Shown here: piece by piece, positions 42,439-52,049 of the stretch | Layout of the letters: every line of letters starts with the position of its first letter | Position numbering within the stretch: the first letter of the stretch is position 1 | Position numbers and translations under genes: made by a program | The notes under the pieces: model-generated | The model's input: the letters and a program-made list of their open reading frames with translations, nothing else | Told to the model about the DNA's origin: nothing | The model's database searches: none | Assembly: GCA_041740355.1 (NCBI GenBank) | Contig: JBGSMD010000011.1 | Coordinates: 57,462-121,461 of the forward strand | Length of the DNA stretch: 64,000 nucleotides | From: Bdellovibrionota bacterium | Lineage (GTDB): Bacteria; Bdellovibrionota_C; UBA2361; CALJRW01 | Reading direction: 5' to 3'

Positions 42439-42918
42439 ATGAATAAACCATCTGAAAACAAAGAAGCACCAATTAAAGTCATCGCTCAAAATAAAAAAGC
42501 AAGATTTGAATATCATTTTATCGAAACTTTTGAAGTTGGAATCGTCTTGACTGGGGATGAGATAAAATCAATTCGGGCCTCTCAGATAACCTTAACTGAA
42601 GCTTATGTTCGAGCAATTGAAGGAGAATTATTTTTAATCGGATCGCATATTGCCCCTTATTCTCATAGTTCCGCAAGGGAGTATAATCCAACAAGAAGTC
42701 GAAAATTATTAATGCAAAAAAAACAGATTATTAAGCTGCAAGTTCAAGTAACTCAAAAAGGCTTAACCATTGTTCCTGTTCAAATATATCTAAAAAAAAG
42801 CTTAGCTAAATTAACTATTGCTCTGGCAAAGGGTAAAGATGCGCCAGACAAAAGGCGCACTGTTCAAGATCGAGAGCTTAAAAAGAGAGCGGAGCGAGCT
42901 GTTAAAATGAGTCGATAA
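42439..42918 (+). CDS. smpB: SsrA-binding protein
   Basis: NKKARFEY, GIVLTGDEIKSIR, RSRKLL, LAKGK..DKR. Confidence 0.97.
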   Translation: MNKPSENKEAPIKVIAQNKKARFEYHFIETFEVGIVLTGDEIKSIRASQITLTEAYVRAIEGELFLIGSHIAPYSHSSAREYNPTRSRKLLMQKKQIIKLQVQVTQKGLTIVPVQIYLKKSLAKLTIALAKGKDAPDKRRTVQDRELKKRAERAVKMSR

Positions 42919-43441
42919 TTTGGTAGGGGAGAGCCTGTAAATATTTTGATTAAGTTAAGTGTAATTGCTCCAAGGGAAAGTTTTGAGGAATTAGCTCATT
43001 TAATTACTAGACGATATTAAACCGATGGTTTCTCGAGCTTTTAATTCAGCCGCAATATAACTAAGAGCACAAACTAGTTAATAAAAAGGCAATCTCTACA
43101 CCTATATTCTAAAAATGAGCGAGAAATTCATCCCTGATTTGAACTCAGTATCTTGTTAGTGTTCTTAATAAACACTTAAATCAAGGTTTTTGATGGTTAT
43201 TTATGTAAATCAGAAGCATCCCGTTGTTTTCATGGGATAAAACTAAGGAGCCTTTATTAAGGCTGTATTTCCGATATAATAGTTGACGGTGAAAATTACT
43301 GGATAAATTCTAGCTGTCTATTATAAATTTAGTAATTTTGAAAAGTATTACCAGATTACAAATTACTTATTTGTCTCTTATGTTACACAAATTTAGAACG
43401 TTGCATAACGTTACCAGAAGATTTTATTTTAAGTTGTTTTT

Positions 43442-46255
43442 ATGACTGCTGTCGCTACTACTAATATTAACCAGACCGAAATCAATTCGGTTCTAAAGAA
43501 ACTTGAAAATTATGATTCAACACAACCTCTGGTGTGGGATCAGTCAAAACCGAATATTGTTAGCTTAACTTTAAAGGATGGTGAAAAACTTACTTTCATT
43601 TTTCCTAAAGATACTAATTTAGGTGAGTCCTATTTGCCTGGTAGAATTCCTAATAAACTTGAAGAACTCTTAGCACTTACCATAAGTAATTCTGTTGTAG
43701 GTCTTGGTGTACAACAACGAGCATTAGCTGCTGCATTAAATAATTACTTTGAAAAACATCAAGCAGTTGAATCAAGACAGATACCTAAAGCAGTTGCCGT
43801 GGTGGAGTCTTCGGAAGCTCAACCCGCAGTTCTTAGTGCTTCGGCTTTACCAACTTCTCCCATAACAGAGGCTTCATCGACGAATCCAAAAGTTGAAGCT
43901 ATTTTAGAAACATTTCAAGAAAAATGGGGTGAGACCGAAGTCGTTGAATCAAAAACCAAAAGAGGCGGATTTTTCTCTGGAATTAGATCATTAGCAAATA
44001 AGGCGACAAAAGCTGTGGGAGATTACTTTAAGAAATCAGAACCAACTATTGTGACTTCTGATGCCCAGCCACCAGTCTCAATTGCTAGCTTAGTTCCAAC
44101 TAGAACAACAGCAATACAAGTAGAAGTAGATCAGGTGTTGGCTAAGGGAGTTTCTTCTCTTGTTAATCCTAATATTAAAATTGATTGTACTGTTCTTGCA
44201 CCGGCAAATGAAATTTCAGTTTTGGTGAAAAGTCTTGCCGCGGCAGGTCTTAAAGGGTCAACTCCGCAAGATATTTCTACAGTAGCTCTTGCTCTTGGGC
44301 TAAACCCTTTAGAACTTGATCGTAAACAAGGTATGATTCTAGTTGCTCCAGAAATTGCCGAGTTAAATCAATTTCGTCTGAGTACTGGTGCTACAAATTC
44401 TAATACTTTAAGAGCCAAGAGTGACCAGCTTTTTAACGCTCCAATTGTTGATTGGAGCGCATTAGAATCGATGCGTCTTAAGAATTCAATTGCACCAGTC
44501 AAAGTTATTGTTCCTAAGCCTATAACCAAAGAAGATTTAGTAGTAAAAGAAAATACTGTACTTACTAATTTTAGCAATTCGGATGTTACTTCTAGGTTTT
44601 CCAGACTGGTTTCACGGATTAGCGATCAAGCTGGTGATTTATATTTTATTGCTGCAACAAAAATAGAGAATAGTTTAAAGGCTTTACTTCCAACTGCTAA
44701 ACCAGCTTATGTGACAGCTTCGCTTGATGATTCTATACTTAAAAAACGAACTTGGTTAAGTGCTGGAGCTGCGGCGCTTCTGAGTACCTACGCATTACTT
44801 CCTTTCGTATCTACAAGTACACAAACTCAAGCAAAAAGTTCGGGGGATTCTGATCTAGATCAAAAGCCTGTTCCAGCTATGAATTTAGCTGGTAATACTC
44901 CGAAAGAATTTGACCTAAAAGGTTTAGTGGCGGCCTGGCAGGGGACTGTTCAAGTAAAGGAGATTGCTCTTGGAGAGACCTCGTTCTCCGGACTAAATGC
45001 TCTTAGCAAGAACGTAGCAGAGAAGTTCAAAGTAGTAGCCGAACAGCATACCAACGCAAAGCCGTTAGCTGAAATTCCAACAGTTACTAATAATCTCGAG
45101 AGTCCTAGGGTTCTTCCAACTAAATTAAAAGCTAACGAGGCTACTGCGATTGTTAATGCAACTCCAGCAACTGCAAATGAAGTTGCCCAAGCTTCTGTTT
45201 CAATTAAAGACTTTATCAAGATCGCTTACTACGCAGAAATAGGAAATAACTTAAAATCAAATGGAAAGAAAGAATTTGAGAAAGCTAACCTTTTTGCAAT
45301 CGAACAATTTGGCCCTGAGTTTGATTTAAGTAAACTTCTTGCCAAGGTAAAAAAAGATTCTTCACTTACTGTAAATATTGCTCCTGAGTGGAAGAGTTTT
45401 TTAGATACTGTTCGCACGGGAGCACCAAAAAAATCTGCTGAGAATATTGCTTTAGCAAATTCTGTAGCTAAAGAACTTATTGGTCAAGCTGCAGTTGCAG
45501 AAAAATCTGTAACGCTAACTCCTCAAGTTGCACCGACTCCAGAAGTAACGCCGGTTCCAGAAGTAGCTCCAACTAAGCCACTTGAAAATAAGCCAACAGT
45601 CGATTCTGGGAATTTAGATAATCTTCCTGATGCTACAGTTGATTTAGAAGAAGTTTCGCAAAGAGATCTTGGATTATTAATTCGTCGCTTAGCAGGAGTT
45701 AACCGCGTAGGAGTTGATTTAGGGCCTAGTTATTTAGTTGCAAGTAGTATTGGAATTTCTGCGGAAACTTTAGAGCTTATTTATAGTAAGAAGGAAGTTG
45801 TGGCGGAAGTTAGTTCTGGAATTTCTTCTTTGATTAAAGAGATGAACTCTGGAGTAGTTTCGACTAAAGCGCTTCGTGAAAAATTTGATAACTTAGATTC
45901 CCAAAAGGAGAACAAACAAATTAACTGGGCACAAGTAGATCGCCTTGCGAAAGAGAATCCTCATGTTGCAACTCGTAATTCTAGTGAGCATCGAGTAGTT
46001 GATAGTGTGAAGCAGATTAAAACTGATATTCAATATCAGTACAATCGCCCGAAAGGTCTTTTTGCTAATACAGCAAGAACTATTGTTTTAAGTGAAAATG
46101 GAAGCCCAGTGGCAGCTTATACGGAAGAGGGAATAATAAGTAGGCAGGGAACATACCTCTTTGCTAATGGAGTAGAGAATCCAAGACATACACAAATCTT
46201 AAATGAAAAATTTGAAAAGTTTTCTGGAAAAAAACCTAATCCAAAAGAATTTTAG
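43442..46255 (+). CDS. Large orphan protein with a central TM helix and Pro/Thr/Glu-rich segment
   Basis: 937-aa ORF; KKRTWLSAGAAALLSTYALLPFVS; TPQVAPTPEVTPVPEVAPT. Confidence 0.8.
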   Translation: MTAVATTNINQTEINSVLKKLENYDSTQPLVWDQSKPNIVSLTLKDGEKLTFIFPKDTNLGESYLPGRIPNKLEELLALTISNSVVGLGVQQRALAAALNNYFEKHQAVESRQIPKAVAVVESSEAQPAVLSASALPTSPITEASSTNPKVEAILETFQEKWGETEVVESKTKRGGFFSGIRSLANKATKAVGDYFKKSEPTIVTSDAQPPVSIASLVPTRTTAIQVEVDQVLAKGVSSLVNPNIKIDCTVLAPANEISVLVKSLAAAGLKGSTPQDISTVALALGLNPLELDRKQGMILVAPEIAELNQFRLSTGATNSNTLRAKSDQLFNAPIVDWSALESMRLKNSIAPVKVIVPKPITKEDLVVKENTVLTNFSNSDVTSRFSRLVSRISDQAGDLYFIAATKIENSLKALLPTAKPAYVTASLDDSILKKRTWLSAGAAALLSTYALLPFVSTSTQTQAKSSGDSDLDQKPVPAMNLAGNTPKEFDLKGLVAAWQGTVQVKEIALGETSFSGLNALSKNVAEKFKVVAEQHTNAKPLAEIPTVTNNLESPRVLPTKLKANEATAIVNATPATANEVAQASVSIKDFIKIAYYAEIGNNLKSNGKKEFEKANLFAIEQFGPEFDLSKLLAKVKKDSSLTVNIAPEWKSFLDTVRTGAPKKSAENIALANSVAKELIGQAAVAEKSVTLTPQVAPTPEVTPVPEVAPTKPLENKPTVDSGNLDNLPDATVDLEEVSQRDLGLLIRRLAGVNRVGVDLGPSYLVASSIGISAETLELIYSKKEVVAEVSSGISSLIKEMNSGVVSTKALREKFDNLDSQKENKQINWAQVDRLAKENPHVATRNSSEHRVVDSVKQIKTDIQYQYNRPKGLFANTARTIVLSENGSPVAAYTEEGIISRQGTYLFANGVENPRHTQILNEKFEKFSGKKPNPKEF

Positions 46256-46279
46256 GAGCTAAAATTCATTTTTAAATTA

Positions 46280-46328
46280 CCTCAGAACACAAAAAACCTC
46301 TTATTTTGGGGTTTTTTGTGTTCTGAGG
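46280..46328. terminator. Long stem-loop after the 937-aa gene
   Basis: CCTCAGAACACAAAAAACC..GGTTTTTTGTGTTCTGAGG inverted repeat. Confidence 0.7.
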
Positions 46329-46476
46329 GCAAAAATTCAATTTAATAATTTTTAAAAAAACTTTAAAAAAGCATCACATATTTTTGCTTAGCTCCATAAC
46401 TTGTATATACTTATTCCAGACTTTCATAGAAAAGTTTGAAAAAAAAGATTTTTTATTTATTAACAAAGGTAACAAC

Positions 46477-47088
46477 ATGAACACAGCAATGGCCAGATTA
46501 GGCGCAGTATCATTGGCAGCAGCGACATTAGCAAGTTGCACGAACTTAGGAAAAATCGCTCCAAGCTTGCAGGATCCTGCCAAAAGAGCAACTCCATATA
46601 GCCCACTAACTGCAGAGTCTACTGTGCAAGTTAAAGAAGGTTCAATCACAACAATTCATGCTGATGGTACAAGATGTGCAACTAGCAAAAGTACAGTAGT
46701 GTATCAAGAAACGATTGCTGGCGTTAGAAATCCTTCTCCGCTTGAAGCTATTGTCTCTCCAGCGCTTAATGGTGCAGTAGGTATGGCACTACTTAGACCT
46801 TCTACTACAACTAATAACAATAACAATAATAACAGGAACGCTAACGACGTTAATAACACTAATAATAATAGCAATCATCAGAACCAAGGTCAGAACCAGA
46901 ACCAAAAGCAACAACAGCAGCAACAACAACAGCAACAACAGAACCAAAATCAAGAGAATTGTCCCCCACAACAAGGTGGATCAGGAATTGGTCAGCCTCC
47001 AAGAACAACATCATTAGATACTAAGACTGATGTCTATTTAGTGAACTTAAGTGGCGCTGAAATGCCAAAGATTACTCTTAACGCTTAA
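46477..47088 (+). CDS. Lipoprotein with Asn/Gln-rich low-complexity tract
   Basis: Lipobox LAS-C after ATG 46477; poly-N and poly-Q runs. Confidence 0.8.
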   Translation: MNTAMARLGAVSLAAATLASCTNLGKIAPSLQDPAKRATPYSPLTAESTVQVKEGSITTIHADGTRCATSKSTVVYQETIAGVRNPSPLEAIVSPALNGAVGMALLRPSTTTNNNNNNNRNANDVNNTNNNSNHQNQGQNQNQKQQQQQQQQQQQNQNQENCPPQQGGSGIGQPPRTTSLDTKTDVYLVNLSGAEMPKITLNA

Positions 47089-47113
47089 TTTATTTAAGTA
47101 CTAAGTGTCATTT

Positions 47114-47151
47114 AAATCCTGCATGCTTGCAAAAGTGTGCAGGATTTTTTT
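47114..47151 (+). terminator. Intrinsic terminator
   Basis: AAATCCTGCA..TGCAGGATTTTTTT. Confidence 0.8.
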
Positions 47152-47214
47152 ATTTGTGCTATAATTATTTTAAGTTGAATAAAACTTAACAACTATTCAT
47201 CTATATACTTGATT

Positions 47215-47242
47215 GGTGTCAAGGTTTCGACTGGATTCTGAC
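47215..47242 (+). repeat. Exact 28-bp copy of the tmRNA 5' region
   Basis: GGTGTCAAGGTTTCGACTGGATTCTGAC is identical to 47428-47455. Confidence 0.95.
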
Positions 47243-47424
47243 TCAACGCCTGCCTCAAGTTTAAAGTGGCGATAAATTTAATAGTCAGTCTATCGACTGC
47301 CAATTAAATTTAAATCCAACTAGTTCTATTTAGATCTTAATTTTGCAAAGACCTAGCCGGCAGGCCAAGTGTCAGAATTGTTAAAATTGAAAATGAGCTA
47401 GCAGATTTAAGTTATTAAGATAAT

Positions 47425-47777
47425 GGGGGTGTCAAGGTTTCGACTGGATTCTGACACTTTAGTAAGCATACCGAGGGTTCCGTTGGCCTCGTAAAAAAGC
47501 GGAAAAAAGATAATTGCTAACGAAGATAATTATCAACTAGCACTAGCTGCTTAATCAGCCGGTGCGGCGTTTAGGGGGTTCGCCTGTGACTCTTTAAAAG
47601 CTTAAATAATGCAGGATGGCAACTGACATGCCTTTGGTTCAGTTGTGAGAAAGAAAAGGCTGGCTTAACGCTTTCTGTATTTGCGAACACGTTAAGTGAG
47701 AAACAAAGCAACTACTAAGTATGTAGAAAGCTAAGGTAGACGCTTCTAGGACGGGAGTTCAATTCTCCCCACCTCCA
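47425..47777 (+). ncRNA. ssrA: tmRNA, tag ANEDNYQLALAA
   Basis: GGGGGTG/CACCTCC-A acceptor stem with G3.U, TTCGAC 5' motif, tag ORF GCTAACGAAGAT..GCTGCTTAA, T-arm GGGAG-TTCAATT-CTCCC. CCA is not encoded (ACTA). smpB lies about 4.5 kb upstream. Confidence 0.97.
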
Positions 47778-48051
47778 CTAATTTGGATTCTTCTCGCCAT
47801 ATATATCTGTGTGGGGAGAATCGAACGCCAAAGAATTCACTGCGATTTTGGTTTTTTTTATGCAAAAAAGATTTCTCTACCTCCATTCGAATCCTCGTTT
47901 CGTAGCTCGCTAATGGCAGGCCTCCTTATAACGAGGCGAATGCGCGGAGCTTCTCAGAAGGCATGATTGTAATGCCATAAATTTAGTTGGAATTATGGAT
48001 GGATTAGCTTTTGTTTCTTAGAATCAAAGATTAAAATTAATCAAAGTGTGC

Positions 48052-48480
48052 CTAACTCCAGCCATAGATCTTATATCCTTTATCTGCCAAACATTGTTCA
48101 ACAAATTTCTGCCAGTTAGGATCTTCTTTGGCAGAATTTTTCATGCCGTTATAAATACCATAAAGTGCACCAGTAGCAGCACCCACTCCAACTCCACGCC
48201 CTGTATTGCCTACAATGGCGCCACCCAATGCTCCCGCGGCCGTTCCTAAGGCAGTGCTCTCGACAGCCGTTCCGCCAACGTCCTTCCACTTAGAGCCTTT
48301 TGGTACGTGATGGTTTGCTAAGTCTTTGCATTCTACAACATCCCTCTGTAATTTATCTTGGCTGGTTTTCTTATAGTACTCGTTTGGATAGAAATTAGGG
48401 TTAGAGTCTTTAGTTGCACAAGATGATAGTGCTAAGAGTAGTAAACATAGAGAAAGTGATTTTATCATGTTAGTCAGCAA
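48052..48480 (-). CDS. Glycine-zipper lipoprotein
   Basis: Lipobox LSS-C; GTAAGALGGAIVGNTGRGVGVGAATGALYG; C..C..KGY. Confidence 0.85.
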   Translation of the reverse strand: MLTNMIKSLSLCLLLLALSSCATKDSNPNFYPNEYYKKTSQDKLQRDVVECKDLANHHVPKGSKWKDVGGTAVESTALGTAAGALGGAIVGNTGRGVGVGAATGALYGIYNGMKNSAKEDPNWQKFVEQCLADKGYKIYGWS

Positions 48481-48567
48481 TTAAAGTTATCATGTATTAT
48501 AATATTATAGGACTCTGCAATTCACAAGTAAAAGCAAGATTGCTGTATAATCTGCTAAGCAATTCTA

Positions 48568-48606
48568 AGATGCCAAGGAAAGTATCAAATACTTTCCTTG
48601 GCATCT
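48568..48606. terminator. Perfect 18-bp inverted repeat
   Basis: AGATGCCAAGGAAAGTAT-CAA-ATACTTTCCTTGGCATCT downstream of the collagen-like gene. Confidence 0.65.
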
Positions 48607-48663
48607 AAATGTATCATCGTTACAAAAACCTCTGCACTTAAAGAGCTGTTTCTACACTTAAAA

Positions 48664-49578
<915 letters not shown>

Positions 49579-50480
49579 TGTTATTTGAAAAATTAAAGTA
49601 AATTTTGGTTTTTTTGACAGTTATCTCTGAAAAGATTTTTTAAAAAACTTTACGAGACTAAATTATAATTAGATTAGTTTAAAATTATAAAATAATTAAA
49701 TTTTAATTATAAAAGAGTACGCTACTAATTCATTAGTGTCATCAAAATATTATTTTTGTAATAATTATAGTAAGTTGAATAAGAATCAATCTTATTACAT
49801 TGTTATGCTAGCTCTGCTTGCAAGAAAAGCTTTAAATATACATTAAAATATTTGGCTCTAAATTTTTTAGTGTTGGATATTCTTCACTGTAAATCTCACC
49901 AGATACTCCCGAGTATTTAACCGTTCGTTTTATAAAATCAACATCATAAATAATTACCCCAGTATCCTAGATGCTCTTTAATAATCAGGGAATTAACATC
50001 AACTTGCTTTGTTCCTATTACTCGTATTTATCTTCTGACTAGCAATTTTTATGCTAAAAAATCTAACTGTAAATTGTTAGCTCAACTTCTATCAATTATC
50101 ATAAAATTTAAAAAAATTGATTGAGAATTTCAAATGCAACGATTGCAGTTCCTCCTTAAGGATTTTACTAATAGAAAATTAGCTTGTTAGGATAGGGGGA
50201 AATGGAACTGATTAAAGTAGATAATTAATCTTCATTAATATTAACTAATCAAATCTTTACTTGATTCAGTGGTCTTTTAAAGGAGAAATGTAATAATTTC
50301 TATACAACTGGGCAGCATAGTTTCTAAGGGAAGTAAATCTAAAGTAATTCCAGGTATAATTAATTAACTTGTTAAAATTATTAGTTAAATAACTCTTTGC
50401 AAATGAAAATTCATACTAACTTTAAAGTTATTTAATCCTTAAACCGAAAGATATCCTAGATTTACTTTATTACCTACGAA

Positions 50481-50942
50481 ATGAAGCAATTAATAACTTT
50501 AGTCTTAATCTTAGCTCTACCTATAAATTGTTTTGCAGGACCGGGAGCTTATTTTGGAAAGCATGATCGTGATACAGGTGCGCTAATACTATTTAAAGTG
50601 AATCGTAATAATATTTCCGGATTAGATTTTAATTTAACATTGCCTGGGCTTTGTATTTATGACGATGAGACAATTGCGGAAAATACATTCTCATTTGGTG
50701 GAGAGAATTTTCTGGATCTGTTAATAGATCGTAACCTGAAAATTAATACTGAATTTGAAGTAGAGTCTGATTCTGGCCATCTTGGCATACTTACTCTTAA
50801 TTGTACTTTTAAAAAAATTGGTCGAAGATTAAGTAAGGCTAAATGTGACGTAAATTTCTCTTCTCCTGTTAGGCCAATAATTCAACTAGATCAATGTTCT
50901 GCAGGGCAAACAATTAAAGGTATAAAACGTGGAGCTAACTAG
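50481..50942 (+). CDS. Secreted hypothetical protein
   Basis: Signal peptide, beta-rich, several Cys. Confidence 0.7.
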   Translation: MKQLITLVLILALPINCFAGPGAYFGKHDRDTGALILFKVNRNNISGLDFNLTLPGLCIYDDETIAENTFSFGGENFLDLLIDRNLKINTEFEVESDSGHLGILTLNCTFKKIGRRLSKAKCDVNFSSPVRPIIQLDQCSAGQTIKGIKRGAN

Positions 50943-51224
50943 CCTTAAGGAGTTAAGTAGTTTTTCCTTCCTCTAGTTTCTAGTACCTTTAGTGAGGTAA
51001 TTCCTAGAGATTAACTCTCTTTGGATTTTGATCTATAATACTTTTAGAATGCGTAAAGACCAACAAAGATAACAATAGTTATGTTTATGGACTGTTTTAA
51101 GCAATAAAAAGCTTTAAGAACTAATAGAGGTGTAGTTTCCTTAATTTACTCTTCAAAAATCAATTATAAAGTCACGGTTACTCAATTATATCAATAACTA
51201 GTGTAAATTATAATTTTTAATCTG

Positions 51225-52049
51225 ATGAATCCTTCACTACTTAAAGAAGTAAAAAACGCCATCACCTCGCCAGCAGTCTTAACTGGTTTAGGGGTCAATT
51301 TAGTAGGACAAGATCTTAGTTCTGTATCAAAATCATTTTTATTAATTTCTTTGATAGTGGCAATTAAAAATACTCAATCAGATAATAATGTAGAACAAGC
51401 TGGTCTTTCAAAAGAATCACCGAATACATATCAAAATATACGTCATGAAAAGCTACTTTCACCAGGCTTGCCATTTATCATTCATTCCACAGTCTATTCC
51501 TTGGAAGGAGTATTGATAGCAAAACAAAACCCGATGCTTTCAACTTGCTTTTTTTTATATGGACTTGGGTCTGCTGCTTATGCAAGCATTTCAAATCAGT
51601 CATTTAATACTCAACAATCCCGCACCCGATCAACTCCTGAGAAGCTATGCAGAAAACTTTGGGGTTTTATTCCAAATAAAGTTCAAACAGTTTTGGAGAA
51701 TCCTGGATTTTCACTTTCTTCAGGAACACTAATTCTTAACGTGTTATATTTTAATTTTACCGATTTAGCGAAATCACCGCTGTTAATGACAACCACGGTA
51801 GCTTCATTAATAATTATGGGCAGTGGAATTTTAAGTAGTATGAAGCCTTTATTAGGTAAAGACAATCAGCTTACAGGTGACTCCTGTCTTTTAGGTGGAG
51901 TTGCAAGAATCGGATTAGCTGCTACATCATTATTTTCTGGTAATGTTTTAGTTGGTTTAGGAACATTATGCTTTGCTGGTGCAATGATAAAAATGGGGTG
52001 TGATTTAAAATCAAAGTTTTTAACTTTATTTCAAAGAAGAAATCGCTAG
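51225..52049 (+). CDS. Hypothetical membrane protein
   Basis: 274-aa ORF with several hydrophobic Gly-rich helices. Confidence 0.65.
   Translation: MNPSLLKEVKNAITSPAVLTGLGVNLVGQDLSSVSKSFLLISLIVAIKNTQSDNNVEQAGLSKESPNTYQNIRHEKLLSPGLPFIIHSTVYSLEGVLIAKQNPMLSTCFFLYGLGSAAYASISNQSFNTQQSRTRSTPEKLCRKLWGFIPNKVQTVLENPGFSLSSGTLILNVLYFNFTDLAKSPLLMTTTVASLIIMGSGILSSMKPLLGKDNQLTGDSCLLGGVARIGLAATSLFSGNVLVGLGTLCFAGAMIKMGCDLKSKFLTLFQRRNR

Follow-up and report, generated by a model that had tools for sequence, protein, structure and literature searches.

The ssrA gene of this Bdellovibrionota bacterium is preceded by a partial copy of its own 5' end, which opens a short, structured unit ending next to the mature tmRNA. 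Our preferred reading, put forward tentatively, is that positions 47212–47424 hold one copy of a genus-specific repeat of about 213 nt, which lies within the leader of the ssrA primary transcript and would act in cis through its fold. The evidence comes from the arrangement of the locus, from compensatory changes in a sister species and from comparable arrays elsewhere in the order.

A copy of the tmRNA 5' end upstream of ssrA

The window analysed here is a stretch of 64,000 nt from the source genome (G000). It carries smpB at 42439–42918 and a standard one-piece tmRNA, called at 47425–47778 by ARAGORN and at 47425–47780 (208 bits) by the Rfam model RF00023, with two ORFs without Pfam matches between smpB and ssrA. 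An ordinary 3'-side repeat unit was also seen in the window behind the tmRNA, at 47781–47888. The first-pass annotation had reported an exact 28-nt copy of tmRNA nt 4–31 lying 213 bp upstream of the original, and we recovered it: 47215–47242 is identical to 47428–47455, and none of 100 shuffles held two matches to this string. In the spare block, the first three G residues of the acceptor strand are changed to ATT (ATTGGTG versus GGGGGTG). The features of the locus are the following.

47114..47157, + strand, intrinsic terminator of the upstream gene, made of a hairpin (47114–47147) and a T run (15-pair stem followed by the T run)
47157..47165, + strand, extended −10 promoter-like site TGcTATAAT (read from the sequence; conserved in the sister species G001)
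47204..47209, + strand, TATACT hexamer, a second and weaker promoter candidate (not conserved; AGTTTA in G001)
47215..47242, + strand, copy of tmRNA nt 4–31 (the 5' block), covering the D-loop analogue and the 5' strand of helix 2a (repeat search)
47234..47242, + strand, predicted 5' strand of helix 1, which pairs with 47371–47379 and closes the unit (minimum free energy fold of the whole precursor; three-sequence alignment)
47248..47254, + strand, predicted 5' strand of helix 2, GCCTGCC, with its partner at 47359–47365 (inverted repeat, predicted fold, alignment)
47273..47312, + strand, predicted inner A/T-rich hairpin (inverted repeat; 16 pairs in the alignment)
47320..47356, + strand, second inner hairpin, weakly supported (predicted fold)
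47359..47365, + strand, predicted 3' strand of helix 2, GGCAGGC (inverted repeat, alignment)
47367..47379, + strand, putative switch strand, whose partner is either its own 5' block (47234–47242) or tmRNA nt 24–35 (complement search, covariation)
47380..47424, + strand, A/T-rich spacer ending in TTTAAGTTATTAAGATAAT before tmRNA G1 (TTTAAGTTATTAA is invariant in three aligned units)
47425..47780, + strand, tmRNA gene with the tag ANEDNYQLALAA (ARAGORN, Rfam)
47448..47459, + strand, tmRNA nt 24–35, the putative target of the switch strand, covering an internal loop and the 5' strand of helix 2 (complement search)

Downstream of the preceding gene, whose last position is 47088, come its intrinsic terminator and, directly 3' of that, TGcTATAAT. 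The same order was found in G001, where a homologous terminator hairpin and T run precede the array and TGcTATACT occupies the equivalent place. Although TGcTATAAT did not appear in the list of a consensus promoter scan on account of its weak −35 region, it is likely the ssrA promoter, with a start expected near 47172. The TATACT noted earlier in front of the copy is also present, ending 5 nt before the block; TGcTATAAT lies 40 nt upstream of it and is the stronger and the conserved one of the two. A third hexamer, GATAAT, adjoins the tmRNA (ending at 47424) and is too close to it for a full-length product. We found no terminator-like sites in 47148–47900. In relatives from the order that have only one tmRNA 5' end, TATAAT-like hexamers lie 15–65 nt before G1, indicating that 5' leaders are normal in this group. 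Since the unit lies between the conserved promoter and the start of the mature tmRNA at 47425, it is most likely part of a pre-tmRNA leader of about 250 nt.

Ten RNA runs were found to hold small shares of the window. In two of them, assembled contigs contained a near-identical tmRNA (47435–47693 and 47480–47760) and nothing in 47100–47434; being assembled contigs, they are uninformative about the leader, neither supporting nor refuting it. The layout itself is not an assembly artefact, since contigs from a second run of the same study reproduce 47100–47283 and 47333–47562 with zero differences.

Predicted fold and alternative partners of the 3' strand

All of the pairing elements that had been described for the unit, namely the closing arms, the inner arm and the 12-nt antisense, are present. 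The arms at 47235–47254 and 47359–47378 (20 nt, 80% complementary) contain GATTCTGAC/GTCAGAAT(T) and GCCTGCC/GGCAGGC, and the inner arm joins 47273–47290 to 47295–47312 (18 nt, 89% complementary). The segment 47367–47378 is a perfect 12-nt complement of 47448–47459, and none of 300 shuffles of the unit body produced 12 nt complementary to tmRNA nt 1–60. The predicted fold of 47215–47424 is a three-way junction composed of helix 1, helix 2 and two hairpins, with an energy of −48.8 kcal/mol (z −2.27; one of 200 shuffles folded as well). Taken alone, this predicted fold beats chance only moderately.

The switch strand can in principle form 12 perfect pairs and one U–G pair with the real tmRNA, versus an antisense of 8–9 nt to its own block. 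It extends 4 nt past the repeated block, and this extension matches only the real tmRNA; around the target (tmRNA nt 24–35), the Rfam alignment marks non-standard pairs in helix 2. The closed unit, in turn, gains helix 2: the calculated duplex energies are −24.1 kcal/mol for the own block plus helix 2 and −20.5 kcal/mol for the real tmRNA, and the minimum free energy fold of the whole G000 precursor contains the closed unit. We also asked where the unit body might come from. Local alignments to the rest of the tmRNA and to the 3'-side unit were no better than those of shuffled sequences (115–278 of 300 scored as high), and a derivation from the tmRNA or a relationship to the 3'-side unit was rejected at this shuffle level.

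Tandem units and compensatory changes in a sister species

In G001, the homologous terminator and promoter are followed by at least three tandem units, the last of which is cut by the contig end. Each begins with a full tmRNA 5' end including GGGGG, the first carries a 29-nt hairpin inserted after nt 11, and two types alternate in the order A, B, A. Tandem Repeats Finder returned 0 rows for this array, as the units are too diverged. Type-A units are 82.7–88.9% identical to the G000 unit and type-B 75.8%, compared with a nucleotide identity of 91.6% for the tmRNA and of 65.9–73.6% for the flanking protein-coding DNA. Between these two species, judged by sequence identity, the unit is kept much better than its surroundings. 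The same genome contains a 5.4-kb insert that separates two tmRNA copies.

The G000-type unit has a narrow distribution. Among the 91 genomes of the order, members were found only in G000 and G001, two other matches covering just 30–39 nt, and two metagenome scans gave 0 loci. The unit body has a single match in G000 and occurs in G001 as array copies only. In an unrelated compost DNA run, one contig is identical to 47268–47322 (55 nt) and diverges beyond; from its sequence it is a further variant of the unit, and the tmRNA of that organism differs at 3 of 337 positions.

Covariation in relatives, proposed earlier as a check on the fold, yielded compensatory changes in an alignment of three related sequences from two genomes. 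In this three-sequence alignment, the inner hairpin has 16 pairs, 2 of them compensatory, with 100% of cells paired, and helix 2 has 7 pairs with 1 compensatory change (G–C to U–A) and 90.5% of cells paired. Helix 1, formed by the switch strand and its own block, has 9 pairs, 2 compensatory, and 88.9% of cells paired. The junction helix between the switch strand and the next block scored higher, with 13 pairs, 5 compensatory and 94.9% of cells paired, and its covariation score was reached by none of 500 shuffles. The two helices of the second inner hairpin have 71.4% and 91.7% of cells paired and 0 compensatory changes. These patterns support two claims of the first-pass annotation: the sister-species covariation backs the inner fold of a self-contained structured element, and the covariation in G001 backs the pairing of the 3' strand with the 5' copy, consistent with alternative partners for this strand.

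The alternation of types in G001 bears on the second pairing. The 3' strands of type A match type-B blocks and the G001 tmRNA, which has a B-type block, and those of type B match A blocks. This fits pairing with the next block and fits equally well a super-fold of two units, in which an A 5' strand pairs with a B 3' strand; the latter is the minimum free energy fold of the G001 array, and pairing with the next copy is thus not proven by the A/B pattern.

Non-canonical pairs add information on strand and molecule. The G000-type structure contains 6 G–U cells versus 0 A–C cells, and units of the genus g10, compared across five species, contain 27 versus 0. Because G–U pairs are present and A–C pairs absent, this asymmetry points to an RNA of the tmRNA-sense strand rather than to DNA or to the other strand.

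Tandem 5' blocks across the order

A pattern search identified at least two tmRNA 5' ends close together on one contig and strand in 11 of 91 genomes, whereas a control pattern with up to one mismatch gave 0 matches. Two cases were added, G007, in which the copy is split by a 35-nt insertion, and G008, in which the second copy stands at a contig end, bringing the total to 13 of the 91 genomes of the order and 6 of its 21 families. Blocks are spaced by 100, 109, 127–133, 141, 185 or 213–217 nt, and there are 1–4 units per locus (one in G000, at least three in G001 and up to four in G037). Every array genome has the real tmRNA as its last copy, with a single strong TATAAT-like site ahead of the first. 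The repeated block usually ends between nt 23 and 31, except for nt 37 in the type B of G001 and about nt 64 in G008. From family to family, the unit bodies are different. Outside the order, 33 genomes of the same class were searched; 8 match the search pattern once and 0 twice, and as the pattern fits the 5' ends of these orders poorly, the absence of a second copy applies to those 8. Scanning the whole collection for two 5' ends 100–130 nt apart retrieved nine loci. Seven are arrays of this kind, in records titled Bdellovibrionota, Oligoflexia, 'Deltaproteobacteria', delta proteobacterium or Pseudomonadota MAGs; the other two, a 60-nt repeat from Gordonia and a CRISPR array from an Anaerolineae MAG, have nothing to do with them.

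The genus g10 allowed a second comparison between species. Its unit bodies are 72–92% identical across five species, compared with 79–98% for the tmRNA, 49–66% for the leader and 42–60% for downstream DNA. RNAalifold predicted a rod of 42 pairs with 5 compensatory changes, all five in one hairpin. The units of G037 and g10 can form an acceptor-like stem between their 3' half and the block, the G3–U pair being kept in g10, and by sequence they look like internally deleted tmRNA copies. ARAGORN placed the start of the tmRNA at the upstream block in 8 of 11 array loci, showing that, at the level of sequence, a spare block can formally take the role of the acceptor strand.

Antisense to the tmRNA start was found in further arrays. 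G025 and G007 carry a 16-nt antisense that corresponds to nt 16–31 of the real tmRNA (reached by none of 300 shuffles) and matches only 8–9 nt of the spare copy; it stands before both the spare and the real block. In these two genomes and in G014, the sequence before the first block repeats the unit end. Leader antisense is not a general feature of the order: when 21 loci with a single 5' block were scored, 19 had none that was significant, and only G006 (10 nt, 0 of 200 shuffles) and G026 (9 nt, 4 of 200) stood out. Given these 19 loci, tmRNA evidently matures without such a device in close relatives.

Comparison with known RNAs and repeat families

The unit does not belong to the RNA families to which it could be compared. 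A tmRNA identity was rejected, as the unit has no CACC-type 3' strand or T-arm, its block starts with ATTGGTG and it stays below the gathering score of 47 bits (which applies to both RF00023 and RF04321): RF00023 gave no match in 47215–47424 even at E ≤ 10, and the G001 units reached 11.5 and 15.9 bits through the 5' block alone. The same features speak against the suggestion of a tmRNA-derived RNA or SmpB decoy: the T-arm and the acceptor 3' strand are missing, and the acceptor 5' strand has decayed. The suggestion of a 6S-like RNA also found no support, since an Rfam search of 47090–47900 returned no 6S family among 10 matches at E ≤ 10, and the predicted fold is a three-way junction and not a long rod with a central bubble.

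Tandem duplication followed by decay is a proposed route to permuted tmRNA genes. Matches to the permuted tmRNA model RF04321 span the last unit and the real start in G000 (31.1 bits, E 2e-4, 47371–47554, T-arm columns unfilled), G037 (33.7 bits) and G054 (31.3 bits). In the latter two, the 3' half of the unit aligns as T-arm and acceptor 3' strand, followed by the next block. Nevertheless, all scores are below 47 bits, a complete one-piece tmRNA follows, and the G000 unit has no T-arm, acceptor 3' strand or CCA; a permuted tmRNA was rejected for it on the score. Reduced tmRNAs of jakobid mitochondria, which are limited to the tRNA-like domain, resemble the acceptor-like closure of the G037 and g10 units. 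That a reduced tmRNA exists in these mitochondria is documented in the available part of PMC3590771. The G000 unit differs in having no 3' half of the tRNA-like domain and a decayed acceptor strand.

Among repeats, the closest described class is that of tRNA-linked repeats, of which the unit is a 5' mirror image on tmRNA. In E. coli, according to the part of PMC8144298 available to us, these repeats (the 178-bp tyrT repeats, rrA, rrB and rrF) lie downstream of tRNA or rRNA genes in 1–5 copies per locus, their last 18–19 bp equal the 3' end of the gene, they are co-transcribed and in some cases processed to small structured RNAs, and their function is, in the same text, largely unknown. The likeness consists of short non-coding units beside a stable-RNA gene, one to several in tandem, with an exact copy of a gene end. 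Unlike them, our unit lies upstream, copies nt 4–31 of the tmRNA start and carries an antisense to the copied block. Membership was rejected because, of three defining features, the unit shows the tandem arrangement and lacks the downstream position and the 3'-end copy; the Rfam family RtT did not match it either.

The known islands of ssrA use its 3' part, and the att repeats that islands leave at the 3' ends of ssrA and tRNA genes share with the unit a partial gene-end copy as a direct repeat around an insert that leaves the gene intact. Targeting of a 5' end does exist in dusA islands, as described in the available part of PMC4482086. In contrast to genomic islands, the insert here measures 185 nt, carries neither genes nor an integrase and has no second copy in the genome. 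Of the marks of an att scar or mobilisable remnant, the direct repeats (28 nt) are there; a recombinase, looked for with Pfam in seven ORFs, and related elements, looked for in G000 and in two metagenome scans, were not found. A dispersed palindrome of the REP or MITE kind was rejected too, given the one match in G000 and the array-only copies in G001, in contrast to the dispersed module of g10 considered below. Finally, transient structures of the rRNA-leader type resemble the unit in that a leader is complementary to a mature strand that awaits a distant partner, but here the leader also holds a decoy copy of the target. No such leader device for tmRNA is described in the literature searched, nor are 5' repeats of ssrA, which agrees with the earlier remark that a 5' copy is unusual.

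Proposed mechanism and competing explanations

On our preferred reading, that of a repeat folding in cis within the ssrA leader, transcription would start about 7 nt past TGcTATAAT and pass through the unit into the tmRNA, and RNase P would cut at 47425. We infer these steps from the conserved promoter, the missing terminator and general knowledge of tmRNA maturation. A spare 5' half in the same transcript might rival the real 5' end as a partner for the tmRNA 3' half, and the antisense of the unit would lock this spare copy in the closed fold. If the spare half is hazardous, units would persist only when an internal antisense locks it. Such a hazard would explain why units fold back on the block in all lineages and why the first block is damaged in some of them, by ATT in place of GGG in G000 and by insertions in G001 and G007. 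As the antisense also matches the real 5' strand, and does so better in G000, G025 and G007, the switch strand may in addition cap the real 5' strand of helix 2 during transcription of the 350-nt body, to be displaced once the 3' half is made. This capping may never occur, however, as the closed unit is predicted to be the more stable of the two. Selection on RNA of this strand is indicated by compensatory changes that keep the pairing and by a unit sequence much better preserved than its neighbour genes; the high identity between species could instead reflect a recent spread of a mobile element. Of the options listed by the first-pass annotation, a maturation switch in the precursor fits best, because the sole conserved strong promoter lies upstream of the whole unit, the 6S-like RNA and the SmpB decoy are not supported, and a neutral insertion scar is unlikely.

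One alternative, which we regard as rather unlikely, is the footprint of a very small mobile or integrative element entering ssrA at its 5' end. It would insert near nt 26–31 and resupply the gene start, keeping the gene whole and leaving the old start upstream as a stub, with a fold that is incidental or serves the element. The succession of direct repeat, insert and direct repeat is what this predicts, as is the nearly constant end of the block (nt 23–31) in six families whose insert bodies differ, and dusA islands do target a 5' end and resupply the gene start (available part of PMC4482086). A hairpin module of g10 is dispersed, with 30 matches in five genomes, some of them in tandem units that follow a tRNA-Gly gene and others in units lying past the tmRNA and ending in copies of its 3' end; likewise, CCGCTCGGCGCT occurs after spare 5' blocks (G037, G014) and after spare tmRNA 3' ends (G059). 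These distributions link the 5' arrays to the repeat families that build 3'-side units and leave room for a mobile or recombinational origin, as does the 5.4-kb insert between the G001 tmRNA copies. Against it, Pfam found no integrase in the seven ORFs tested (42439–52049), the G000 body occurs once in G000 and, like the G037 body in its genome, only within the array in G001, and the metagenome scans gave no loci for the G000-type unit. The similarity to the tmRNA that reaches nt 37 in G001 type B and about nt 64 in G008 does not suggest a fixed att-like length, the pre-block sequence of G014, G025 and G007 repeats the unit end as a plain tandem duplication would, and the G–U/A–C asymmetry points to a constraint on RNA. 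Separately from function, the origin is probably a partial tandem duplication of the ssrA start and possibly a small insertion element.

That the unit is a stand-alone small RNA, made from the TATACT promoter or released by RNase P, stable and acting in trans, for example by pairing with tmRNA nt 24–35 or by binding a protein through the A/T-rich hairpin, appears improbable. In its favour, the unit has a compact, self-contained predicted fold and a strongly conserved inner hairpin, with 55 identical nt in the contig from an unrelated habitat; TATACT stands 5 nt ahead of the block, and the available part of PMC8144298 describes some tRNA-linked repeats as processed to sRNAs that bind Hfq and CsrA in vitro. 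However, no terminator or other defined 3' end was found before the tmRNA, TATACT is not conserved in G001 and no Rfam family matches the unit; the RNA contigs of two runs, which do not contain it, are uninformative rather than negative. Least probable of all, in our view, is a neutral history, in which a partial tandem duplication of the ssrA start left a remnant that is tolerated through removal by RNase P and kept similar to the tmRNA by gene conversion. Conversion can homogenise tandem repeats, the identity covers the 28-nt block and is lost on either side of it, and the copy number varies by species (one, at least three and up to four units in G000, G001 and G037). Yet conversion cannot explain a 185-nt body that has been kept and has no counterpart in the tmRNA, nor does neutrality account for the compensatory changes or for an identity of 83–89% between species versus 66–74% in flanking genes, which also makes the neutral insertion scar proposed at first unlikely.

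Implications for tmRNA genes in the order

More broadly, and with less confidence than in the local reading, we propose that these arrays form a hitherto undescribed class of "5'-linked repeats" on tmRNA: structured, co-transcribed and selected units in one Bdellovibrionota-type order, each opening with the 5' half of the tRNA-like domain of tmRNA. As a cis switch, they may set the timing of tmRNA folding and of its maturation by RNase P, and they may be released as abundant sRNAs pairing with helix 2, tying the capacity for trans-translation to a regulator borne by the leader. Within this speculative class, the units of G037 and g10 would be mini tRNA-like domains, maybe intermediate on the way to permuted tmRNA. 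A practical consequence concerns automated annotation, which, given ARAGORN's choice of the upstream copy in most array loci, yields tmRNAs that are 100–150 nt too long.

Few bacterial RNAs are as abundant or as well studied as tmRNA, yet the literature searched holds no description of long structured leaders that consist of copies of its 5' end. If the units act at the RNA level, they would provide a natural case of a precursor equipped with a decoy of its own end and an antisense to it, with a bearing on how misfolding is avoided in a 350-nt RNA that has to pair its two ends. With these units, the long-unexplained tRNA-linked repeats also gain a counterpart on the opposite side of a gene, and the units may record how tmRNA genes become permuted.

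Repeat units and genes around ssrA

The tmRNA gene of the window is followed by a repeat unit of its own, and the features to which we refer on its two sides are as follows:

42439-42918: smpB
47781-47888, directly downstream of tmRNA: 3'-side repeat unit of the ordinary kind
48664-49578 (-), downstream of ssrA: protein of the exosporium-type fibre kind, in which a collagen triple-helix repeat is combined with a BclA C-terminal domain

The 3'-side unit repeats the T-arm and acceptor 3' strand of tmRNA in inverted orientation (47811-47829 against 47754-47772; 19 nt, 89% complementary), and it ends with a degenerate version of the 3' end of tmRNA (47874-47885 against 47766-47777). The sister species G001 carries two clean 3'-side units of ~120 nt each (L002:1857-2065), both with a terminator-like hairpin. 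Each unit ends by repeating the final 13-15 nt of tmRNA, with one base changed in the second copy. As the window tmRNA gene ends in ...CCTCCACTA (47774-47780), its terminal CCA is not encoded as such; the 3' end encoded by the G001 gene is ...CCTCCACCA.

Another contig of G001 carries sequence from two tmRNAs (L031, G001:C33:1-7800). Its first 104 nt are the final part of one tmRNA, which may be the one behind the array of 5' units on contig C2. Next come ~5.4 kb whose genes include one of AbiEii type and one that is kinase-like; these are followed by a 17-nt piece from a tmRNA 3' end, a further 260 nt and then the second tmRNA, which is complete. The five ORFs scanned in this locus included no integrase.

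On the other side of ssrA, two ORFs of 937 aa and 234 aa, the latter Q/N-rich, lie between smpB and ssrA (region 42439-47088), and neither had a Pfam match. In several relatives, the end of smpB directly precedes the ssrA promoter. Within the terminator hairpin of the upstream gene, 16 nt (47123-47138) are 88% complementary to tmRNA nt 30-45 (47454-47469); this stretch lies upstream of the proposed promoter, and its complementarity is probably due to chance.

tmRNA starts and repeats in other genomes of the order

In eight of the 11 array loci, where tandem spare copies of the tmRNA 5' end stand before the real tmRNA, ARAGORN calls begin at an upstream spare 5' end and are 492-553 nt long (L053-L062). 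Rfam placed the true tmRNA start in both such loci scanned (L061 and L062). A ~33-nt repeat (AACATCTAACGATGTTGG...) occurs three times in tandem directly upstream of tmRNA in G008 (L057, G008:C194:1-124), and the leader of G025 contains a 38-nt tandem pair.

Finally, genomes of the genus g10 (L073, L074, L075 and L076) contain a dispersed bulged hairpin module, TATTCGAACTTGGC..GCCAAGATTCGAATG and variants, which is followed by a G+C-rich hairpin and then by an ACC-type tail. Tandem units built from it stand downstream of tmRNA and also behind a tRNA-Gly(GCC) gene, and it likewise makes up the body of the 5' units that precede tmRNA in this genus.
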